A stretch of 64,000 nucleotides of DNA from Torpedo marmorata (taxonomy: Eukaryota): contig OZ360231.1 of assembly GCA_977017645.1 (NCBI GenBank), positions 372,001-436,000 on the forward strand, given 5' to 3'. Both the position numbers and the translations under genes were made by a program. The first letter of the stretch is position 1. Every line of letters begins with the position of its first letter. Below the pieces are notes generated by a model. The model worked only from the letters and a program-made list of their open reading frames with translations, ran no database searches and was not told where the DNA came from. Of the stretch, positions 31,196 through 52,800 are shown piece by piece.

Positions 31196-34100
31196 ATTTT
31201 TAAAAATATTTTATTTAAAATTTTAAATCACAAAATACATAAGGTAAAATATAAAATTATCAAAATACATGTGATACATTTTCACCCCCCCTTCCCTCCC
31301 CTCCCTAACCCTCCCACCCCTTCTGATCTACTAAGATAAAAAAGAAAGAAAAAAAGATAGAATAAGGAGAATGTCAATCTAAAAAAATACATCTATAACT
31401 AATTTTATTATGGAGGATAGGTTCGCCAGTCAGATACGATGTCCAGAGATCTTCAAATCCTTAAACCAAGAACCTTCATATATGGGCTCCATATTTTCAA
31501 AAAGAAATGATATTTATTACGTAGATTATAAGTAATTTTTTCAAGAGGTATACATGAACAAAGTTCTGCATGCCAGCTTTCTAACCCTAAATCTACGTCA
31601 GATTTCCAAGTAATAGCAATACATTTCTTAGATACAGCTAAAGCAATTCGCAAAAATTCTATTTGATACATATTTAATTTCATCTTAATACTAACTCTTT
31701 TAATATCTCCAAACAAAAATATCATAGGGTCCATTGGGAATGTAATTTTTAATACTTTATCCAAATTTTTTTAAACTTTCAACCAAAAATCATAAACTTT
31801 TGGACAGAACCATGTAGAATGTACAAAAGAACCTTCCTCTTTATTACATCTAAAACATAAGCCTGATAATGTCGCGTTAAATTTCTTTAACTTTTTAGGT
31901 GTTAAATATAATTGATGAAAAAAAATTATATTGAACTACCGTATATTTCGGCGTATGTCGAGTCTTGAAACCCTCAAAAATCTCTCAAAAAACAGGGGTC
32001 TACTTATACGCTGGATATACTTTTGAGACCTTAAAATCAGCTCAAAAACCAGTCCACGCCGATTCGGCGTATAAGTCGACCCACGAAAAACCGATTCGGC
32101 GTATAGGTCGACGCTGGAAGCACCTCCCCACCGCCGCTGCTCCCCGACACCTCCCCACCGCCGGGCGTCGCCATAACCCACCCAGACATTCTATAATTGT
32201 AGAGCCTGAGCTCCCCGCTCCTGCTCGGGAAAGACGTCGCCACACCTGCATCTTCCCGGCCAGAAGCAAAGGTTTTTTTTTTTTTTAAACTGTTTTTTAT
32301 ACTTATCGGTACGTGCTTAATTTACAGCTTTGTTACTTGGCGATTGTGGTGTTATAACAAATTTTGGGTTATTGCTGGGAGGCCCGGACAGCCTGAAAAT
32401 TGGGGGTCGACTTATACGCTGGATATACCATAAAACCATTAAAATGAGGATGAAACAAGGGGGTTGACTTATACGCCGGTCGACTTATACGCCAAAATAT
32501 ACGGTAATCTATATCTAACATTAATAATCTTCGTCATACTTAGTTTACATAATTCTTTCCAATGATCTTCATCTATTGTTACATTCAAATCTGATTCCCA
32601 TTTTAATCTTGATTTATGAATTCCTTCTTTAGGGATTTTTCTCTGAAACAGTCTGTACATTTGAGAAATAAATTTATTTACATCTCCGTTAGTAACTAAT
32701 AATTCTAATTCACTCTGTCTTGGTAAAGTCAAACTATAGCCTACTTTCCCAACTAAAAATGCTCTAATTTGATAATAAGCAAAAAGTGTATTATCCAATA
32801 TATTAAATTTATCTTTCATTTTTTGGAAAGTAAATTTACCAGCTTCAAAACAATCATTTATTTTCTTAATTTCTTTTTGAAACCAAATTTTAAATAATTG
32901 ATTATTAACAGTAAATGGAATAAGTTCATTTTGATATAGAGGCATTTTTCGAGAAATCAACCCTTTTCCTCCTATTTCCCTATCCTCTCTGTTCCATATT
33001 TCTAACAAATGTTTAAAGATAGGAGAATTCTTCCTTCTTGTTAATATTAATTTAGAATTCCATTTATAAATAACTTCTTCTTTGGAATCTTCTCCTATAG
33101 TATTTAATTCTATTCTAATCCAAGCAGAAGACTTACCGGTAGTTAAATCAAAGTTCATTAACAAATTTTAGTTGAGCTGCTTTATAATAATTTTGAAAAT
33201 TAGGAAGTTGTAAACCACCCATTTTATAATTCCAAGTTACCGGTAATTTCTCTATACCTACTCTAGCCAACTTTCCTTTCCACAAAAACTTCCTAATAAT
33301 TAAATTTAAATCTTTTAAAAAATTGAGGAATTTCATAAGGAATTGATTGAAAAAGATATTGAATTCTTGGAAAAACATTCATTTTGATACAATTTACCCT
33401 TCCCATTAAAGTTATAGGTAAATCCTTCCAACTCTCTAAATCTTTTTTAATTTTCATAAATAATGGTAAATAATTTAATTTATACAAATTAACTAATTTT
33501 GTATCAATCTTTATTCCCAAATATTTAATTCCTTCTTTTGACCATTTAAATTGTGTAATTTCTTTACATTTACTATAATCCCCTTGCGTTAATGCCATAA
33601 TTTCACTTTTATCAGAATTAATCTTATAACCAGATATTTCCCCGTATTCTCTCAATAAAGCAGTCAATTGTATTAAAGAAGTAATAAGTTTTGTCATATA
33701 TATCAATACATCATCTGCAAATAAACTAATTTTATGATCTTCTCTTCCAACTTTAATACCTGCAATCTTAACATCTTGTCTAATTAATTCTGCCAAAGGT
33801 TCTATTGCTAAAATAAACAATGCTGGTGACAAAGGACATTCTTGTCTAGTTGACCTGGTCAAAGGAAATCTTGAAGAAATTTTTCCATTTGTAACCACTT
33901 TAGCAGATGGTTCTTTATATATAGTTTTAATCCAATTAATAAATGTATTTCCATAACCAAATTTCTCCAATACCTTAAATAAAAAATTCCACTCTAATCT
34001 ATCAAAAGCCTTTTCAGCATCTAACGTTAATACTAATGCTAAATCATCCTTCTTTTTATGCACATTAATTAAACTAATTAATCTACCGGTAGCTATATTA

Positions 34101-35644
34101 TCCTTTGAATATCTATTTTTAATTAAACCAGTTTGATCTACATGGATTAAATCTGGTAGATAATTAGCCACTCTATTTGCTAAAACTTTTGCCATTATCT
34201 TATAATCCACATTTAACAATGAAATTGGTCTATATGATTCTGTTTTCAACACATCTCTAACTTTTTTTAGGTATAACTGTAATTATTGCATTTGAAAATG
34301 TATCCGGTAACGAATAAGTTTCTGTTATTTGTTTCAACACATCCATCCATATATGGAGGTATCAATAAATCTTTAAACTCCTTATAAAATTCTGATGGAA
34401 AACCATCTTCCCCTGGAGATTTACCACTCATTAAAGTAGTAAGAACCTCATTAACTTCCCTCAATGAAAAAGACGAGTCCAAAAATTCTTTACTTTGAGT
34501 ATTTAATCTAGGTAACTTAATTTGAGATAAAAATCTATTAATTTTAGAATCATCTTGATCAATCTAAGATTTATATAAATTCAAGTAATAATCTTTAAAA
34601 GAGTCATTTATTTCTCGAGGTTTATACGTTATTTTCTTAGAATTTTTTTATAGCATTTATAGTTCAAGAAGTTTGATCTTTCTTTAATTGCCAAGCCAAC
34701 ACTTTATGTGCTCTTTCTCCCAATTCATAATATCTTTGTTTAGTTCTTTCAATTAATTTTTCCATTTTATGTTTGTAACAAATATAATGCAATTTTTTTC
34801 CAACTAAATTATTCCTTTTTTCTTCTGATCTCTTTTATTGCAAATCCTTCTCCAAACATTCAATCTCCCTTTCCAAATTATCCACCTCTCGAAGATAGTC
34901 CTTCTTAATTTTTGCTGAATAACTTATTATTTGACCTCTTAAATAAGCCTTTAAAGCTTCCCAAATAATAAATTTATTATCAGTCGAATTAGAGTTTATT
35001 TGTAAAAATTCCTGAATTTCCCTTCTTATATAATCACAAAAATCCATTCTTTTTAATAAAGAAGAATTAAATCTCCACCTATATAGTTTTTTCTTTTTCT
35101 GGAATTATAAAAGACATTAATAAAGGCGAATGATCAGAAATTATTCTCGCTTTATAAGATGCTTGTGTTACTCTGTCTTGAACTTGTGAAGACAATAAAA
35201 ACAAATCTATCCTAGAATATGAATCATGTCTAAAAGAATAAAAAGAGTCATCTTTTAATCTAGGATTCCATTTTCTCCAAATATCTATTAAATTTAAGTC
35301 TTTCATCAAAGTAAGAACTCTTTTGGCAATTTTAGATTTAGCAACTGATCTTGATGTTTTATCCATTATCGGATCTAAACAACAGTTAAAAAATCCCCAC
35401 CAATTAAAATATTATCATTAGCTTCTGACAAATGCAAAAAAGAATCTTGAATAAATTGTTCATCATCCGCATTTGGTACATATATATTCATAAGTGTCCA
35501 CAATTCCGAATATATCTGACAATGTATTAAAACATATCTATCTACCACATCAATAACCACAGATTGTATTTTAAAAGGTAACTTTTTATTAACTAATATG
35601 GATACTCCTCTTGCTTTAGAATTAAATGAAGAAGCAATCACTTT
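31196..35644 (-). mobile_element. L1 copy, 5'-truncated in APE, frameshifted; 16-bp TSD
   Basis: TSD CTCTGCTGAGGTAAAC at 31180-31195 and 35645-35660. ORF2 fragments are homologous to 20595-24392. Confidence 0.95.
31939..32504. mobile_element. Non-autonomous Tc2/pogo-type DNA transposon (MITE) inserted at a TA in the L1
   Basis: TA|CCGTATATTTCGGCGTAT ... ATACGCCAAAATATACGG|TA. L1 sequence resumes exactly across it, and the ends are shared with the 55972-57813 element. Confidence 0.93.
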
Positions 35645-40975: not shown

Positions 40976-43900
40976 CATCGTTGACTTCCCTCATCGAAAA
41001 CGACAAATCTAAAAGTTCTTTACTTTGAGTACCGTATTTGACGGCATATAAGACCCCCATTTTTTTTAAACCAAAAAAATCGCCTCAAAAACCACGCGAA
41101 GGTGACATTTTGGTGCCGCCATTTTGGGCACCGAGTGGAGTCCAGGAAGCGGGACCGCTGCTTTGTGGACCACATTCCCTTGGGTGGCCTGTGCTTTCCG
41201 GACACACCGCCGCTCACTTCCCCGGTAAGAAGGCTCGCTCTCTCCCTCCCACCCGCTAGCTCGCTCTCGCCTGCTCCCTCCCCGCCCGCTCGTACTCCCC
41301 ACCCTCCTGCTCTCGCCCGCTCTCTCCTCGTACGCTCGCACTCGCCCGCTCTCACCCGCTCTCTCCCCGCCCGCACGCTCTCTCTCCCCGCCCACTCGCA
41401 CTCACCCCACCAACAGTGCTTTGAGGGGAATGCTGGGCCTCGATGACCAGCCTTTGTTCGACAAACACGAACCATCGAGCAAATTGAATGAGGCGCGGGG
41501 GCGGGTGGCAGTGAGCGAGCAGCCTGTCAAGCTCAACTCAAAAGGCCGCCCGCTCGCTCACTGCCACCCGCGCCTCAATCTGTTCGAGGGGCCGTGCACG
41601 TCGAACAAAGGCTCAGCGTGGAGCCTGATCACCGACGCCCAGCGCTCCCCTCAAAGCAAGCGATCAATCGTATGCTCCCCACAACGGTGGGCCTGGGCCC
41701 TGCCCGTTGTCCTGGCTTCACTCCCTCCCACCCTCGCGCGCCCGCAGGTCCCGTCACACCTGTCAATCAATTAGCGTTTGGACAGTGGGGGGGGAAGCAG
41801 CCTGAGCCTCAGCGTGCGGCGGGCAGGAGGACGTGTTGCTGCTGTGAAGGTAAATACACTAAAACTTCTGATCTCGTTTTTTGCAAATCCTTCTCCAAAA
41901 ATCCAATCTCCCTCTTCAAATTATCCACTTCCCGAACATATTCCTTCTTAACTTTTGCTGAATAACTTATTATTTGGCCTCTTAAATAAGCCTTTAAAGC
42001 TTCCCAACTAATAAATTTATTATCAATTGAATTAGAATTAATCTGTAAAAATTCTTGAATTTCTCTTCTAATATAATTACAAAAATCCATTCTTTTTAAT
42101 AAAGAGGAGTTAAATCTCCACCTATATATAGTTTTTCCTTTTTCTGGAATTATACATGACATTAATAGAGGCGAGTGATCAGAAATTAGTCTTGCTTTAT
42201 ATTGTGCTTGAGTCACCCTATCTTCTACTTGTGAGGACAATAAAAACATATCTATTCTAGAATAGGAGTCATGCCTAAGAGAATAGAAAGAATAATATTT
42301 TTCTCTTGGATTCAACTTTCTCCAAATATCTATTAAATTTAAATCTTTCACCAAAATAAGAATTCTTTTAGCAATTTTAGTTCTAATAATTGATTTCGAT
42401 GTTTTATCCATTATTGGATCTAAACAACAATGAAAGTCCCCACCAATTAAAATATTATCATTAGCTTCTGACAAGTGCATAAAAGAATCTTGAATAAATT
42501 GTTAATCTTCCATATTTGGTACATATATATTCATAAGTGTCCACATTTCTGAATATATCTGACAATGTTTTGAAACATATCTACCTGCCACATCTATAAC
42601 CACAGATTGTATTTTAAAAGGTAACTTTTTATTAACTAATATAGCAACTTTAGAATTAAACGAAGATGCAACCACTTGCCCAACCCATTCTCTTTTCAAC
42701 TTCTGATGTTCTAAATCTGTCAAACGTGTCTCTTGTAAAAAAGCTATGTCTACATTTAACTTTTTAATATATGCTAAAGTTTTCTTCCTTTTAATTGGAT
42801 TATTTAGCCCATTTATATTAATACTTACTACATTTATTGATTTACTATCCGCCATTTCTAGTTTTTAATATCTCTCTCTCCAACAGATCCACCAGCACCC
42901 TCTTCCACATTTGTAATCTATTTGACATCTCCTTAGAAAAAGAAAGAAAAAAGGTAAAAACGAAACAAAAAACTAATAACCCCACTACTTTCAATACAGG
43001 CTTGGCTACCCCAGTATTACCACCCTCCATTGCTAAGGTGATGTGTGACTAGGTAGGAGAAAACTAAAAGTACACCCCCACCCCAAACAGAATTTACACA
43101 ACATTTATTATCATATCTTCATCTAACTTCTTCGAGCTCTTTATTAGTTTGGTCGTCATCGATCTCGATCCCAACCTCATCCTCTTTTTCTAAAGTACTT
43201 GGCAAAGAAACTTGAGACGGTGAAATATCTTGAACTTGATGTTGTTCCATCAAATCTTGATCTTTCTCCAAATTCGGAAGGGAATTTGCATGTTGTAAAG
43301 CTTGTTGATAATCAGCAAAGAAACAAAATTGATTCCCTGTAGATTGAACCTTCAAAACCGCAGGGTATCTAAATGAAAACTTATATCCCTTACTCCAAAA
43401 AAATCGCTTTTGCTGGATTAAATTCCTTTCGTTTTTTAACTATTGCTGAACTTAAATCAGGGTAAAAGAAAACCTTATTATTCTGAATCATCAATGGACC
43501 TTTTTGCAGCCTAGCATTTTGAACAGCTAGTTTCAATACTTTCTCTTTATCCTGGTATCGAAGACATTTAACTAAAACTGAACGTGGCCTTTGTCCAGGA
43601 TAAGGTTTCCCTCTACCAACTCTATGTGCTCTCTCTAACTCCAGTCCATAGTTAAAATTCTCAATACCCAAAACTTTTGGAATCCATTCTTGAAAGAAAT
43701 CAATCGTATCATACCCTTCAAAATTTTCAGGTAGTCCCACAATTTTAATATTATTCCTCCGACTCTGGTTTTCCAATACATCCAGTTTTTGTGAAAGTTC
43801 ATCTCTTTGCTGCTCCCAACCTGTAAATGAATCTTCTACTTTATCAACTATCTTTATAATCCATCATTTCTTCATAATGCTCTTTAACATCCTTTTCAAT

Positions 43901-46768
43901 TTCTTGAACTTTCACTTTTACTATATTCACAGTATTTGTGTTTTCTCATATCTTGCTTGATAGTTTTTATTTCTTCTTCAATTCCATTAAGTCTATGTTC
44001 CAAACGATGATCCATCTTTGACACCTGCTTTGTTAAGTTATCAATAGCCTTAAGTATTTGTTGTTGAGCTACAGATATAGCTAGATTAATTCGTTTAATA
44101 AATGTGGCACAAAAAAAAGAGGAAATGTAATCTTAAATACTTTATCTAAAATTTTTTTAACTTTCAACCAAAAATCAAACTTTTGGACAAAACCATGTAG
44201 AATGTACAAAAGAACCTTCCTCTTTATTACATCTAAAACATAAACCTGATAATGTCGGATTAAATTCATTTAGTTTTTTAGGTGTTAAATATAATTGATG
44301 AAAAAAATTGTATTGTACTAATCTATATCTAACATTAATAATCTTCGTCATACTTAATTTACATAATTCTTTCCAATGATTTTCATCTATTCTTACATTC
44401 AAATCTAATTCCCATTTTAATCTTGATTTATGAATTCCTACCTTAGGCACTTTCCTCTGAAACAATTTATACATTTGAGAAATAAATTTATTGACATCTC
44501 CTTTAGTAACTAATAATTCTAATTCATTCTGTCTTGGTAAAATCAAAGCATAACCTAATTTCTCAATCAGAAAAGCTCTAATTTGATAATAAGCAAAAAG
44601 TGTAATATCTAGTATATTAAATTTATCTTTCATTCTTTGAAAAGTAATAAATTTTCCAGCTTCAAAACAATCATTAATTCCTTTTTGAAACCAAATTTTA
44701 AATAATTGATTATTAATAGTAAATGGAATAAGTCCATTTTGATATAAAGGCATCCTTGAAGAAATCAATCCTTTTCCTCCTATTTCCTTATCCGTCTTAT
44801 TCCATATTTCTAACAAATGTTTAAGAATTGGAGAATTTTTCTTTCTTGTTGATATTAATTTAGAATCCCATTTATAAATAACTTAATTGAATGTTTTATT
44901 GAAAGAATACGGGGAAATATCTGGTTATAAGATTAATTCTGATAAAAGTGAAATTATGGCATTGACACAAGGGGATTATAGTAAATGTAAAGAAAATTAC
45001 ACAATTTAAATGGTCAAAGGAAAGAATATTTGGGAATAAAGATTGATACAAAATTAGCCAATTTATATAAATTATTTACCATTATTTATGAAAATTAAAA
45101 AAGATTTAGAAAGTTGGAAGGATTTACCGATAACTTTAATAGGAAGGGTAAATTGTATTAAAATTAATGTGTTTCCAAGAATTCAATATCTTTTTCAATT
45201 AATTCATTATGAAATTCCTCCGAAATTCTTTAAAGATTTAAATTTAATTATTAGGAAGTTTTTGTGGAAAGGAAAGTTGGCTAGAGTAGGTATGGAGAAA
45301 TTAACTTGGAATTATGAAATGGGTGGTTTACAACTTCCTAATTTTTCAAAATCATTATAAAGCAGCTCAATTAAAATTTGTTAATGAAATGTTTGATTTA
45401 GGAAAATCTTCTGCTTGGATTAGAATAGAATTAAATAATATAGGAGAAGATTTGAAAGAAAAAGTTATTTATAAATGGAATTCTAAATTATTATTAATAA
45501 GAGGGAAAAATTCTCCTATTTTTAAACATTTGTTAGAAATATGGAATAGAGTGGATAGGGAGATAGGAGGGAAAGGGTTAATTTCTCGAAAAATGCCTTT
45601 ATATCAAAATAAACTTATTCCATTTACTGTTGATAATCAATTATTTAAAATTTGGTTCCAAAAGGGAATTAAGAAAATAAATGATTGTTTTGAAGCTAGT
45701 AAATTTATTACTTTTCAAAGCATGAAAGAAAAGTTTAATGTATTAAACAATACACTTTTTGCTTATTATCAAATCAGAGCATTTTTAGTTGAAAGGTTGG
45801 GTTATAGTTTGACTTAACCAAGACAAAGTGAATTGGAATTATTAGTTACTAATGGAGGTGTAAATAAATTTATTTCTCAATGTATAGATTGTTACAGAGA
45901 AAAATGCCTAAATTAGAACTCACAAATCAAGATTAAATTGGGAATCAGATTTGAATGTAACAATAGACGATGAACATTGGAAAAAATTATGTAAACTAAG
46001 TATGACGAAGATTATTAACGTTAGATATAGACTAGTGCAATATAATTTTTTTCATCAATTATATTTAACACCTAAAAAAATTAAAGAAATTTAATCCGAC
46101 ATTATCTGGTTTATGTTTTAGATGTAATAGAGAGGAAGGTTCTTTTGTACATTCTACATGGTTCTGCCCAAAGATATATGATTTTTGGTTGAAAGTTAAA
46201 TTTTTTTTAGGAAGGTTCTTTATATATAGTTTTAATCCATTACCCTATAATATTTTTGTTTGGAGATATTAAAAAGAATTAGTATTAAGATGAATTTAAA
46301 TATGTATCAAATAGAATTTATATGAATTGCTTTAGCTGTTTCTAAGAAATGCATTGCTATTACTTGGAAATCTGATGTAGATTTAGGGTTAGAAAGATGG
46401 CATGCAGAACTTCGTTCAGCTATACCACTTGAAAAAATTACCGGTACTTATAATTTATGTAATAAATATCATTTCTTTTTGAAAATATGGAGCCCATATA
46501 TAAAAACTGTTGGTTTAAGGATTTGAAGATCTCTGGATATCAGATCTGACTGGCGAACCTATCTTCCACAATAAAATCAGTTTATAGTTGTTCTTTTTTA
46601 GATTGACATCTTCCCTACTCTATCTTTTATTTTCTTTTTCTTTTCGGGAGGGTTAGGGAGGGGAGGGTGAAAATGTATCACATGTATTTTGATAATTTTG
46701 CATTTTATATTATGTATTCTGTGATTTTAAAATTTTAAATAAAAATTTTTTTTTTTATTTTTTTTTTA
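40976..46768. mobile_element. Composite, 5'-inverted L1 insertion; 16-bp TSD
   Basis: TSD AAGAAAGAAATTAGAA at 40960-40975 and 46769-46784. Contents: minus ORF1-ORF2 5' part (40976-~44075), short sense patch (44075-44124), minus ORF2 3' segment (44121-44885), sense ORF2 3' part + UTR (44885-46768). Confidence 0.9.
41032..41855. mobile_element. Non-autonomous Tc2/pogo-type element, one TIR only (right end lost together with adjacent L1 DNA)
   Basis: TA|CCGTATTTGACGGCATATAAGAC start. Shares CGCGAAGGTGACATTTTGGTG..CCATTTTGGGCACCGA with the element at 62900. GC-rich interior. Confidence 0.75.
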
Positions 46769-48102: not shown

Positions 48103-49589
48103 ATGACTACAAGAAAAGGTAAAGATCAGAAGACAAAGAAAGTAGTGTTAAAAGGAAGTCCAACTCTAGTAGAAGATAGGCCTACCTTAGCGATGGAACC
48201 TCGGGATGAAGTTCCTCTCCCTCCTCGGAAGATGCAGACTCGACTGGGTAAGCCTGTAGTGACGCCAGCGCCGTCCTCCCGGGGAGCTGGGGAAGATGGC
48301 GCTGGTGCCCGAAAGAAAACGGGACTACAGAAAGAAACCGACGCAACGCGCGTGCGCGAAATGACGCGCTCGATTGAAAAACAACGGGAGCTGCCAGCTG
48401 AAGCTGACAGCCAAAAAAAATCGCCTCGTTCGATTCAATACATCGTTGGAGAGGAGGGATCATCATCATCCTCAACGGATTCAGAAGATAAAGGAAGGAA
48501 GAAGAAACTGTATGTAGAATCTGAAGGAGAATTAGAAGACATGGAGGGAGAGGAAAGAAATATAATTGGAGGAGAAGAAGCCTATCTGTTTCAAGGTTAA
48601 CAAGAAATTTCAACTACTTTTATGCAAGCATTGAATTATTTAACAGATCAAGTGTCTACAATGAATCAACGTATAGAAAATGGATTTAAAGCTATGGATA
48701 CTTATTTTACACAATTTAGGGAAGAAATAAAAGATATTAAACATAATATGAAAAATAATTCAACTACTGTGGATAAAGTTGTATTGAAAGTTCAGAAAGT
48801 TGAAAATGATGTTAAAGAATGTCGTGATGAGGTGGTGGATTGTAAAGATACAGTGGATAAAATGGAAAATTCATTTACAGCCTGGGAATTACAAAAAAAT
48901 CAACTTTTACAAAAAATAGACACATTGGAGAATCAAAGTCGTAGAAACAATGTTAAAATTGTGGGACTTCCAGAAGATTATGAAGGGACGAATCCAACTG
49001 ATTTTTTTCAAGAATGGATTCCAGCTACTCTGGGTATTCAAAATTTTCCTTATGGTCTGGAACTGGATAGAGCTCATAGAGATAATAGAAGGAAACCATA
49101 TTCTGGTCAAGCGCCACGCTCAGTGTTAATTAGATGTCTTCGTTACCAGGATAAAGAGAAAATATTAAGATTGGCAGTTCAAAATGCGAGAGAGAGAAAA
49201 GCTCCTTTGATGATTAATAAAAACAGTATTTTTTAATGCAGATTTGAGCGCAGTAATAATTAAAAAACGCAGAGTTTAATCCAGCCAAAGCAATTTTTTG
49301 GAAGAAGGGGTATAAATTTTCTTTTAGATACCCTGCGATATTGAAAGTTCAGTCTCCAGACAATCAATCAAAGTTTTTCGCGGATTATCAAGAAGCTTTG
49401 GAATTTGCTAATACGTTGCCAAATAAAAAACAAGATCAAGATTTGCCTGGCTACCCTCAAGTCAGTATACCTATTCAAGACTTGTTGCACTTGACGGAGA
49501 ATCTTCAAGTACCTCCACGAAAAGACGAATTGGTTGAATTGACCGATGAGCAAGTTAATAGAGATTTGGAAGAAGCTGGACTTGGATGA
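48103..49589 (+). pseudogene. L1 ORF1 (coiled coil, RRM, CTD), disrupted
   Basis: LENQSRRNNVKIVGLPE, ELDRAHR and PRSVLIRCLRYQDKE motifs; split into 3+ frames. Confidence 0.9.
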
Positions 49590-49874
49590 AGAATTGACAT
49601 TAATCTGTTATGTAAATTCTGTTGGGAGGGGTGGACTTTTTGTCTTCTCCGTACCTAACCACATACCACTTTAGTGGCGAGGGCCACTTCCCAAACAGAA
49701 GAGGGGGGTAATACTGGTGTAAATTACCAGTAATTTTATATTGGGTTTTTCTTTTTAGTTTTTTATTATCTTTTTTTCTTTCTTTATCTTTGTTTAAGGA
49801 GATGTCAAGTTTATTACAAATGTGGAAAGGGGTACCGGCTGGCCTGATGAGGAGAAAATTATTAAATATTAGTA

Positions 49875-52800
49875 ATGGCGGATAGTAAGCTAATAAATGT
49901 TGTAAGTATTAATATAAATGGGCTAAATAATCCCATTAAACGGAAGAGAACTTTGGCATATATTAAGAAGTTAAAAGTTGATATTGCATTTTTACAAGAG
50001 ACGCATTTGACAGAGGCAGAACATCAAAAATTGAAAAGAGATTGGGTCGGTCAAGTGGTTGCGTCCTCATTTAATTCTAAAGCAAAAGGAGTTGCTATTT
50101 TAATTAATAAAAAGCTACCTTTTAAGTTACAGTCTGTGGTTTTAGATGTTTCAGGGAGATATGTTTTAATAAATTGTCAGATATATTCAGAAATGTGGAC
50201 ACTTATGAATATATATGTGCCAAATACGCAAGATGAACAATTTATTCAAGATTCTTTTATGCATTTATCAGAAGCAAATGAGAATATCTTAATCGGTGGG
50301 GACTTCAATTGTTGTTTTGATCCGATACTAGATAAAACATCAAAGTCAATTATTAGAACTAAAACTGCAAAAAAAATTCTTTGATGAAAGATTTGAATTT
50401 AATTGATATTTGGAGGAAGTTGAATCCAAGAGAAAGAGATTACTCTTTTTATTCTTTTAGACATGATTCTTATTCTAGAATAGATATGTTTTTATTATCA
50501 TCTCATCTACAAGATAGAGTTACTCAAATACAGTATAAAGCAAGAATAATTTCTGATCATTCGCCTTTAATAATGTCATGTATAATTCCTGAAAAGGAGA
50601 AAATTGCTTATAGATGGAGATTTAATTCTTCCTTATTGAAAATACCGGATTTTTGTAATTATATAAGAGAAATTCACGAATTTTTACAGATTAACTCTAA
50701 TTCGGTTGATAATAAATTTATTATTTGGGAGACTTTAAAGGCTTATTTAAGAGGTCAAATAATAAGTTATTCAGCAAAGGTTAAAAAAGAATATGTTCAG
50801 GAATTAGATAAATTGGAGAAGGAGATTGAATTTTTGGAGAAAGATTTACAAAAGAAAAGATCAGAGGAGAAAAAGAGGAATTTGATTGGAAAAAAATTGT
50901 ATTATAATACGTTACAAACATAAAATGGAGAAAGTAATTGAAAGAACTAAGCAAAGATATTATGAATTGGGAGAAAGAGCACATAAAGTATTGGCGTGGC
51001 AATTAAAGAAAGAGCAAGCTTCTAGAACTATAAATGCTGTTAAAAAGAATTCAAAGAAAATAACATATAAACCTCGGGAAATAAATGACTCTTTTAGGGA
51101 ATTTTATGTAAATTTATATAAATCACAAACTGATAAAGATGATTTAAAAATTAATGCATTTTTATCAAAAATTAAGTTACCTAGATTGAATACTCAAAAT
51201 AAGGAATTTTTAGATTTACCATTTACGATGAGAGAAGTTAGTGAGGTTCTTAGTTCTTTAACAAATGGAAAGTCTCCGGGTGAAGATGGTTTCCCATCAG
51301 AATTTTATAAGGAATTTAAAGACTTACTGATACCCCCATATATGGAGGTGTTAAAACAAATAACGGAATCTCATTCTTTACCGGAAACATTTTCGAATGC
51401 AATAATAACAGTTATACCAAAAAAAGACAGAGATGTGTTGAAAACAGAATCATATAGACCAATTTCATTGTTAAATGTGGATTATAAGATAATGGCGAAA
51501 ATATTGGCAAATAGACTTGCCAAAGATTTACCAGATTTAATTCATGAGGATCAAGCAGGTTTCATTAAGAATAGATATTCAAAAGACAATATAGCTAGGT
51601 TAATTAGTTTAATAAATGTGGCGCAAAAGAAAGAGGAATTAGCATTAGTATTAACATTAGATGCTGAAAAGGCTTTTGATAGACTAGAGTGGAATTATTT
51701 ATTTAAGGTATTGGAAAAATTTGGTTTTGGAACTACATTTATTAATTGGATTAAAACTATATATAAAGAACCTTCTGCTAGAGTGGTTACAAATGGACAA
51801 ATTTCTTCAAAGTTTTTGTTGACTAGGTCGACACGGCAAGGATGTCCGTTGTCACCTGCATTATTTGTTTTAGCAATTGAACCTTTGGCAGAATTAATTA
51901 GACAAGATATTAAGATTGTGGGTATTAAAGTTGGAAGGGAAGAACATAAGATTAGTTTATTTGCAGATGATGTATTGATATATATGACAAAACCTATTGC
52001 CTCTTTAATACAATTGGATGTTTTATTGAAAGAATATAGGGAGATATCTGGTTATAAAATTAATTCTGATAAAAGTGAAATTATGGCGTTAACACAAGGG
52101 GATTATAATAAATGTATGGAAATTACACAATTTAAAAGGTCAAAAGAAGGAATTAAATATTTAGGTATAAAGATAGATACTAAGTTAGTTAACTTATATA
52201 AATTAAATTATTTACCATTATTTGTGAAAATTAAAAAAGATTTAGAAAGTTGGAAAGATTTACCTATAACTCTATTAGGAAGGGTAAATTGTATTAAAAT
52301 GAATATCTTTCCAAGGATTCAATATCTTTTTCAATCAATTCCTTATGAAATTCCTCAGAAATCTTTTAAAGATTTAAATTTAATTATTAGGAAGTTTTTG
52401 TGGAAGGGTAAATTGGCTAGAGTAGCTATGGAGAAATTAACTTGGAATTATGAATTGGGTGGTTTACAACTTCCTAATTTTCAAAATTATTACAAAGCAG
52501 CTCAATTAGGATTTATTAACGAAATGTTTGACTCAGTAAAATCTTCTGCTTGGATTCGAATAGAATTAAATAATATAGGAGAAGATTTGAAAGAAGAAGT
52601 TATTTATAAATGGAATTCTAAACAAATATTATTAAGAGGTAAAAATTCTCCTATTTTTAGACATTTGTTAGAAATATGGAATAGATTGGATAAAGAGATT
52701 GGAACGAAAGGTTTAATTTTGCCAAGAATGCCTATATATCAAAATAGACTTATTTCATTTGCTTTTGATAATCAATTATTTAAAATTTGGTTTCAAAAGG

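Follow-up and report, generated by a model that had tools for sequence, protein, structure and literature searches.

L1 Copies in the Analyzed Window

The analyzed window comprises 64,000 nucleotides of the Torpedo marmorata genome (assembly GCA_977017645.1, contig OZ360231.1, positions 372,001 to 436,000 of the forward strand) and contains L1 pieces belonging to several elements. The spacer between ORF1 and ORF2 is retained in three of them, herein referred to as copies A, B, and C. The Pfam domains found in ORF2 (Exo_endo_phos, RVT_1, and zf-RVT) fit an L1-group non-LTR retrotransposon with an APE endonuclease, a reverse transcriptase, and a C-terminal zinc motif. The following reading frames were located (window coordinates):

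48103..49589, plus strand: ORF1 of copy A, broken into three open stretches; stop codon TGA at 49587-49589
49586..49597, plus strand: mini-ORF of 3 codons, its AUG overlapping the ORF1 stop codon (AUGA); common in the AAGGAG branch and absent from the sister branch
49698..49700, plus strand: usual start-codon place of the long frame described below; 39 of 70 copies have ATG here, and copy A has GAA and a long frame that breaks further downstream
49802..49885, plus strand: 27-codon ORF of copy A, the 3' part of the long frame with a secondary AUG in front; stop codon ending at +11 of ORF2
49875..53654, plus strand: ORF2 of copy A, endonuclease and reverse transcriptase, frameshifted
20595..24392, minus strand: ORF2 of copy B, open throughout its length
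24382..24465, minus strand: 27-codon ORF of copy B, same branch as copy A; long frame broken upstream, GAA at the start-codon place (24570)
42845..43030, minus strand: whole long frame of copy C, 61 codons including the 27-codon ORF (42928-42845), from ATG to a stop codon at +11 of ORF2 (ATG at 42855)

In the broken ORF1 of copy A, coiled-coil matches and a weak match to Transposase_22 (E 0.037) were found. An open ORF1 of 497-498 codons is present in 5 of the 30 closest copies of copy A. ORF1 is also long in the clade of the sampled loci L096, L101, L107, L110, L120, L122, L137, and L141, with 461-515 open codons versus 260-370 in a published fish and frog table. The AUGA at the ORF1 stop codon occurs in many loci of clusters 1-10, where it opens an ORF of 3-4 codons that is often followed by a second overlapping mini-ORF. 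In copy B, the match to copy A extends no further than about 45 nt inside ORF1. The L1 pieces at window positions 31197-35643 and 41865-46753 contain internal inversions and resemble 5'-inverted insertions.

The initial annotation described the three 27-codon ORFs (49802-49885 on the plus strand, 24465-24382 and 42928-42845 on the minus strand) as a conserved candidate cassette for control of ORF2 translation. All three are present with the peptides that it reported; AAGGAG and a U-rich tract precede every one of them, and their stop codons end 11 nt past the A of the ORF2 ATG. Across the 84 nt, the three copies share 76-86% identity, and neither of the other two frames is free of stop codons in any of them.

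Sampling of L1 Copies

Copies of the first clade (clade 1) were selected by a degenerate pattern in the ORF2 N-terminus, independently of the spacer. This pattern yielded 36,077 matches in the 6.2 Gb genome, and the first 90 among the matches listed, all from one contig, were analyzed. The spacer hairpin was retained in 70 of these 90 copies; the other 20 are 5'-truncated or rearranged. The median difference between the ORF2 5' ends of the sampled copies is 18%, and the copies share descent, so that per-copy counts overstate independence. For the second L1 clade of this genome (clade 2), 1,568 matches were found; 70 were taken, and the ORF2 ATG was located in 60. All dN/dS values given below are pairwise between real copies.

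Extent and Start of the Long Frame

No ATG was found at the start place of the 27-codon ORF in 33 of the 70 spacer-complete copies (clusters 9, 12-17, and 19), and in these copies the frame is still open and has the same end at the junction. The AAGGAG-ATG start, the length of 27 codons, and the LQMWK motif therefore do not form a conserved unit of the family; they are confined to one branch. The open frame, herein referred to as the relay frame, extends upstream across the U-rich tract to a length of 57-66 codons. The codons found at its usual start place in the 70 copies are ATG (39), ACG (14), GAA (5), ATA (4), GTA (3), ACA (3), and others (2). The ATGs at this place are in a strong context, having A or G at -3 and, in nearly all cases, G at +4. 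In 47 of the 70 copies, the frame runs from this place to the junction in frame and free of stop codons. In addition, a stop codon in the -1 frame lies 12-14 nt past the relay start codon (window 49697-49711, plus strand) in nearly all clade-1 loci; this geometry equals that of the ORF2 junction, and the frame concerned is AUG-led in few copies.

The spacer length keeps the frame in 52 of the 70 copies, which have 11 different lengths from 187 to 220 nt in steps of 3 nt. At least seven separate length changes are required, for which the chance expectation is (1/3)^7 = 5e-4. Out-of-frame lengths were found in 18 of the 70 copies, mostly single copies or members of two lineages with an AUG downstream. 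Such lengths are common to close relatives only in cluster 7, which holds copies A and B, and in a branch of cluster 13, and in both cases an in-frame AUG lies downstream of the frame break. In some families, an AUG of the same frame within 20 nt of the ORF1 stop codon brings the length to 87-92 codons. In total, an in-frame AUG is connected to the junction in 66 of the 70 copies: each of the families with no usual AUG or with a broken frame has another in-frame AUG, and where there is no AUG behind the tract, the upstream one is kept.

Among the 30 closest relatives of copy C, the long form was found in 14 and the 27-codon form in 22. Among those of copy A, the long form was found in none, and the 27-codon ORF is intact in all 30. 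We propose that the branch containing copies A and B gained a second AUG downstream of the U-rich tract, after which the upstream part decayed. The 27-codon ORF is thus a derived short form of the relay frame, a real feature with wrongly drawn boundaries. It is only the 3' part of the longer frame, its AUG being secondary and lineage-specific, and the copies do not support the fixed cassette originally described.

Selection on the Frame and on the Peptide

Over the last 26 codons, stop codons were found in 2 of 56 copies in the relay frame versus 53 and 56 copies in the other two frames; in the U-rich tract, the corresponding numbers are 4 of 48 versus 46 and 23. None of the 151 codon types shared between copies is a stop codon, though 68 of them lie one step from a stop. 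The excess of openness over chance was estimated by simulating neutral change on a 64-copy tree, its scale set by the observed difference of 35% and its root distorted by two long branches: 7.1-12.1 stop codons common to at least two copies were expected, and none was seen. None of 300 runs in any of eight settings gave this result. Chance thus does not account for the open frame in the genome copies.

Values of dN/dS were obtained from 56 indel-free real copies of 92, two window copies being counted in. For the last 26 codons, they are 0.99, 0.72, 0.87, and 1.26 in four divergence bins, and every interval includes 1; for ORF2, they are 0.24, 0.22, 0.20, and 0.18 in the same bins. Variation at the three codon positions is even in the relay frame (36/39/35) versus 82/48/181 in ORF2. 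The suggestion of a conserved micro-protein is supported neither by these dN/dS values nor by codon periodicity, which is lacking. A Pfam search with the relay peptide revealed no family, and a protein search with an alignment of 24 peptides revealed no homologue at E 0.01 among 7973 scored candidates, all of 31-116 residues.

There are two departures from this pattern. In the first seven codons, which overlap hairpin 2 (see below), dN/dS is 0.36 (0.13-0.95) in the most distant bin. In the U-rich tract, the frequency of U at codon position 2 is 0.74, compared with 0.61 and 0.63, and it is enriched in 13 of 15 related clusters. Together, they hint, though weakly, that the peptide may be selected. 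In clade 2, the peptide is unrelated and likewise neutral, with a dN/dS of 0.83-1.40 (25 of 28 copies) versus 0.28 for two divergent ORF2 bins. The relay frame is under selection for openness, and its amino acids drift. Of the properties that the initial annotation proposed to follow across genome copies, frame preservation was confirmed, length invariance failed, and dN/dS is close to 1 for the peptide.

Junction With ORF2

In clade 1, the stop codon of the frame ends at +8 (16 copies), +11 (37 copies), or +14 (27 copies) of ORF2, that is, in all 80 of the 90 copies with an ATG at the expected place. The background chance of this placement, which spans four codons, is 0.37. In clade 2, the stop codon ends at +8 in 52 of 60 copies (background 0.22) and at +8 to +14 in 56 of 60. 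Codon 2 of ORF2 varies (A, D, N, S, V, T, Y, and H) despite the fixed position of the stop. At least 25 open codons in this frame were found in only 30 of the 60 clade-2 copies, compared with 3 and 0 copies for the other frames. The other clade-2 families mostly have stop codons 0-3 codons upstream of the ORF2 AUG. In one clade-2 family (cluster 5 of loci L151-L220, for example L155, L159, and L167), each of the three frames has a stop in the 12 nt preceding the ORF2 AUG, and a further stop lies at +8. On the level of sequence, a stop-restart arrangement involves an upstream stop codon within a few codons of the ORF2 AUG and a frame that is open and AUG-led; both were found.

RNA Elements of the Spacer

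Four conserved elements and one possible larger stem were located in the spacer of copy A:

49618..49699, plus strand: G-rich arm and its partner, a possible larger stem around hairpin 1; single-sequence fold with z -2.3, the consensus pairing the arm otherwise
49673..49688, plus strand: hairpin 1, 6 bp capped by a 4-nt loop, a short way upstream of the usual start; pairing in 99% of cells, both sides changed in 3 of 6 pairs
49710..49734, plus strand: hairpin 2, 8 bp, beginning 9 nt past the usual start codon; 91% of cells paired, one pair occurring as C-G, U-A, and U-G
49746..49795, plus strand: U-rich tract, within the long frame in most families, there giving about 20 hydrophobic residues
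49796..49801, plus strand: purine motif (A/G)AGG(A/G)G, 79 nt upstream of the ORF2 ATG in 71 of the 77 copies where it was found

Both hairpins covary over 16 copies, with 94.6% of cells paired and changes on both sides in 14 cases versus 3.7 in shuffles; controls slid along the alignment gave 29-62%, and the structure was derived from the same alignment on which it was evaluated. The spacer folds have z values of -1.9 to -3.1. The optimum for a stem-loop behind a start codon lies about 14 nt past that codon, to which hairpin 2, at 9 nt, is a loose fit. Such a stem-loop can raise initiation at the codon, according to the part of PMC5972666 that deals with it. In copy C, hairpin 1 is lost by a deletion of 21 nt (window about 43035-43055, minus strand), and the long frame is nevertheless intact. 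An Rfam search over 49500-49950 with E up to 1 revealed no match, dicistrovirus-type intergenic IRESs included. The TURBS core UGGGA was found 25-100 nt upstream of the junction in none of 70 copies.

Between the purine motif and the ORF2 AUG (49796-49874), the spacing changes at the family level by 3 nt only, and the intervening sequence is about 35% different. This fixed distance may follow from a spacing requirement or, behind the hydrophobic stretch, from how long the ribosome tunnel is. Several 5'-truncated copies (L083, L226, L229, L232, L237, and L238) start at the purine motif and abut the poly(A) tail of another L1; they may result from insertion into tails through A-rich microhomology.

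Distant L1-Like Loci

Scanning of metagenome contigs revealed 80 loci with an endonuclease identity of 29-45%; 61 of these with enough upstream DNA were analyzed, and an ATG could be located in 59. An AUG-led ORF ending between -15 and +20 nt from the ORF2 AUG was found in 40 of the 59 loci at a length of at least 20 codons and in 32 at a length of at least 40 codons. After removal of seven near-duplicates, these numbers are 35 of 52 (null 11%) and 29 of 52 (null 4%), the null being random spacer positions. The feature is missing from 17 of the 52 loci. In six distant loci, the ORF stops just upstream of the ORF2 AUG, and in many the junction ORF encodes a hydrophobic peptide.

A long ORF was found upstream in 25 of 28 distant loci checked, ending 145-818 nt before the AUG of the junction ORF. 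With a profile built from eight ORF1s of this genome, 24 of these 25 were matched at E 6e-17 or better; Pfam at 1e-5 recognized none of 18 distant ORF1 candidates. Since a separate ORF1 homologue ends well upstream in 24 of the 28 loci, the junction ORF is no piece of ORF1. The same layout thus occurs in the second clade of this genome and in distant L1-like loci, so the initial restriction of the feature to one lineage is too narrow.

A Probable Relay Frame for Translation of ORF2

The openness of the frame, the presence of a start codon anywhere along it, and the stop codon at the ORF2 AUG are all selected, and the peptide is not. For this reason, we consider it probable (roughly 0.6), judging from sequence comparison, that the relay frame brings ribosomes across the spacer to ORF2 by stop-restart and that no useful peptide is made. 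Ribosomes would translate the relay frame across the U-rich spacer, terminate 8-14 nt beyond the ORF2 AUG, and then start anew at this AUG, as in SART1 and in human L1, both of which use ORF1 for this purpose. Stop-restart at the junction would yield little ORF2p. Entry into the relay frame is the least certain step; ribosomes may rescan after ORF1, with hairpin 2 perhaps slowing them, or enter internally on the structured 5' half of the spacer. An AUG-led chain from the ORF1 stop codon to the relay start is lacking in most families, which counts against the relay reading. The second stop codon shortly past the relay AUG suggested a two-step relay from the ORF1 stop through a first small ORF to the relay AUG; this was rejected as a general scheme, the upstream frame being AUG-led in only 4 of 61 copies. 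Of the control cassette first proposed, a selected out-of-frame ORF overlapping the ORF2 start thus remains, most likely serving ORF2 translation, and the fixed 27-codon unit does not.

Among the alternatives, a repressive overlapping uORF is the least improbable, though unlikely. Ribosomes started in the spacer would pass the ORF2 AUG out of frame, and ORF2p would be low and made by leaky ribosomes. This requires just an AUG followed by a frame that is open as far as the ORF2 start, and it puts no constraint on the peptide, which is what was observed, and the whole megabat spacer inhibits retrotransposition according to the results consulted in PMC4072516. However, repression has no need for a stop codon 8-14 nt from the AUG, as seen in 80 of 80 clade-1 copies and, at +8, in 52 of 60 clade-2 copies. 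No occlusion is possible in the several clade-2 families and six distant loci where the frame stops before the AUG, and megabat activity fell rather than rose on removal of the spacer AUGs in the experiment described there (PMC4072516). Repression and relay may both be partly true, because a relay too limits output. Improbable, in our estimation, is a small single-pass membrane protein with a short polar head, about 20 hydrophobic residues, and a 28-residue tail, in which hydrophobicity would be the sole constraint. The in-frame tract is indeed hydrophobic (median best 19-residue hydropathy 2.24 versus 1.53 and 1.44), exceeding stop-free shuffles in 12 of 15 clusters with a mean z of 0.53, and the enrichment of U at position 2 in 13 of 15 clusters, the strong-context AUG in 39 of 70 copies, and the hydrophobic peptides of many distant junction ORFs agree with such a protein. 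Hydrophobic residues are expected of U-rich DNA anyway, however (shuffle means 1.4-2.4), and the tail has a dN/dS of about 1. Moreover, the young branch of copies A and B spread despite loss of the hydrophobic part, and the Pfam and homologue searches described above were negative.

Rated lower again is an IRES in the spacer serving ORF2 itself, the open frame being a by-product of constraint on the RNA. It would account for the two covarying hairpins, the stable folds, the U-rich tract, and the fixed purine motif, and in silico prediction placed IRESs in 32 of 36 long vertebrate spacers (PMC5381506). RNA structure leaves unexplained, however, the indels in threes across a slippery U-rich tract, the avoidance of stop codons in one frame, and the compensating AUGs; the structure is found where the relay frame starts, 140-260 nt before ORF2, and has no match in Rfam. 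We give very little credence to the U-rich tract and AG as a 3' splice site, with the 27 codons forming the final exon of either a spliced ORF1 or a spliced leader. A pyrimidine tract followed by AG/G is present in all copies, but the AG is preceded by A or G and never by a pyrimidine, and the frame is kept through the would-be intron. Non-U sequence precedes the motif in only 19 of 4634 copies, none of which joins ORF1 or the leader at GT, and the 5' ends of the 20 truncated copies are scattered. Chance combined with common descent is just as hard to credit. Were only three related copies considered, a 27-codon frame would stay open quite often (35-57% per lineage when one real copy is changed by 10-20%), but the tree simulations never reproduced the data (0 of 300 runs in eight settings), and the layout is shared by the second clade, with its unrelated peptide, and by the distant loci.

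As for generality, we see about even chances that long-spacer L1s, said to be the vertebrate ancestral state, are generally tricistronic in translation, with ORF1, a relay selected only for its openness and the place of its stop codon, and ORF2. In the L1s studied here, the two hairpins would set entry, and the hydrophobic stretch may tune a pause at the junction. The translation of ORF2 behind spacers of hundreds of bases and the persistence of such spacers are left open in the relevant parts of PMC5381506 and PMC4072516, and a selected relay frame would answer both. It would also replace the in silico IRES idea with exact predictions of which AUGs, which frame, and which stop codon matter. 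The long form, the 27-codon form, the forms fused to the ORF1 stop codon, and the forms with a stop before or after the AUG provide a natural allele series for reporters. The relay frame would further illustrate clearly how an ORF can be selected for its translation and not for its product, and hence warn against annotating such frames as micro-proteins.

Comparison With Known Systems

Searches of the literature available as full text revealed no account of a conserved frame in the spacer that overlaps the start of L1 ORF2. The parts of PMC3894237 and PMC2241872 that were covered contain nothing on a spacer ORF. Boissinot and Sookdeo (2016; PMC5381506) predicted a dicistrovirus-like IRES for the same region of vertebrate L1s with long spacers and noted T-rich repeats in fish. 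The sections consulted treat the spacer as non-coding and report no shared structure, and section 11 names no ORF. ORF0 of primate L1 (PMC5203782) is also a third small L1 ORF but, as described in the part of that source used here, it is antisense, located in the 5' UTR, and primate-specific.

The TURBS of caliciviruses and influenza B, as summarized in part of PMC5972666, combine a stop codon near the downstream AUG with a motif at a fixed upstream distance, as in Torpedo L1. In contrast to these, the UGGGA core is absent from all 70 copies, and the upstream ORF of Torpedo L1 is short and no functional gene. The UAAUG of SART1 (Kojima et al., 2005, via the same part of PMC5972666) likewise belongs to a non-LTR retrotransposon with a stop codon overlapping the ORF2 start. 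There, the overlap is provided by ORF1 and the structure lies downstream, whereas in Torpedo L1 the overlap is formed by a third, peptide-neutral frame, the AUG precedes the stop codon, and the hairpins lie upstream.

In megabat L1, which has a 445-nt spacer with small ORFs, removal of all AUGs cuts retrotransposition about 3.3-fold (Yang et al., 2014; PMC4072516). The authors appeal to reinitiation and find it difficult to account for the long spacer having persisted. Megabat and Torpedo L1 are alike in the long spacer and in AUGs favoring retrotransposition; they differ in that the portion of that paper considered here reports no particular conserved frame and no test for frame selection. 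Human ORF2 requires the completion of an upstream ORF that is not necessarily ORF1 and whose protein is irrelevant (Alisch et al., 2006, as cited in passages of PMC4091050, PMC5972666, and PMC4072516), much as is proposed for Torpedo L1. The upstream ORF of human L1 is ORF1, and the 63-nt spacer is dispensable; in Torpedo L1, about 270-300 nt lie between the end of ORF1 and ORF2, and the ORF2 AUG is where a separate selected frame ends. The relay reading fits both the human need for any completed upstream ORF and the 3.3-fold megabat loss, as reported in those parts of PMC4091050 and PMC4072516. Stop-restart as a class of mechanism is already known, and a dedicated third frame that would serve it appears to be new in the literature covered.
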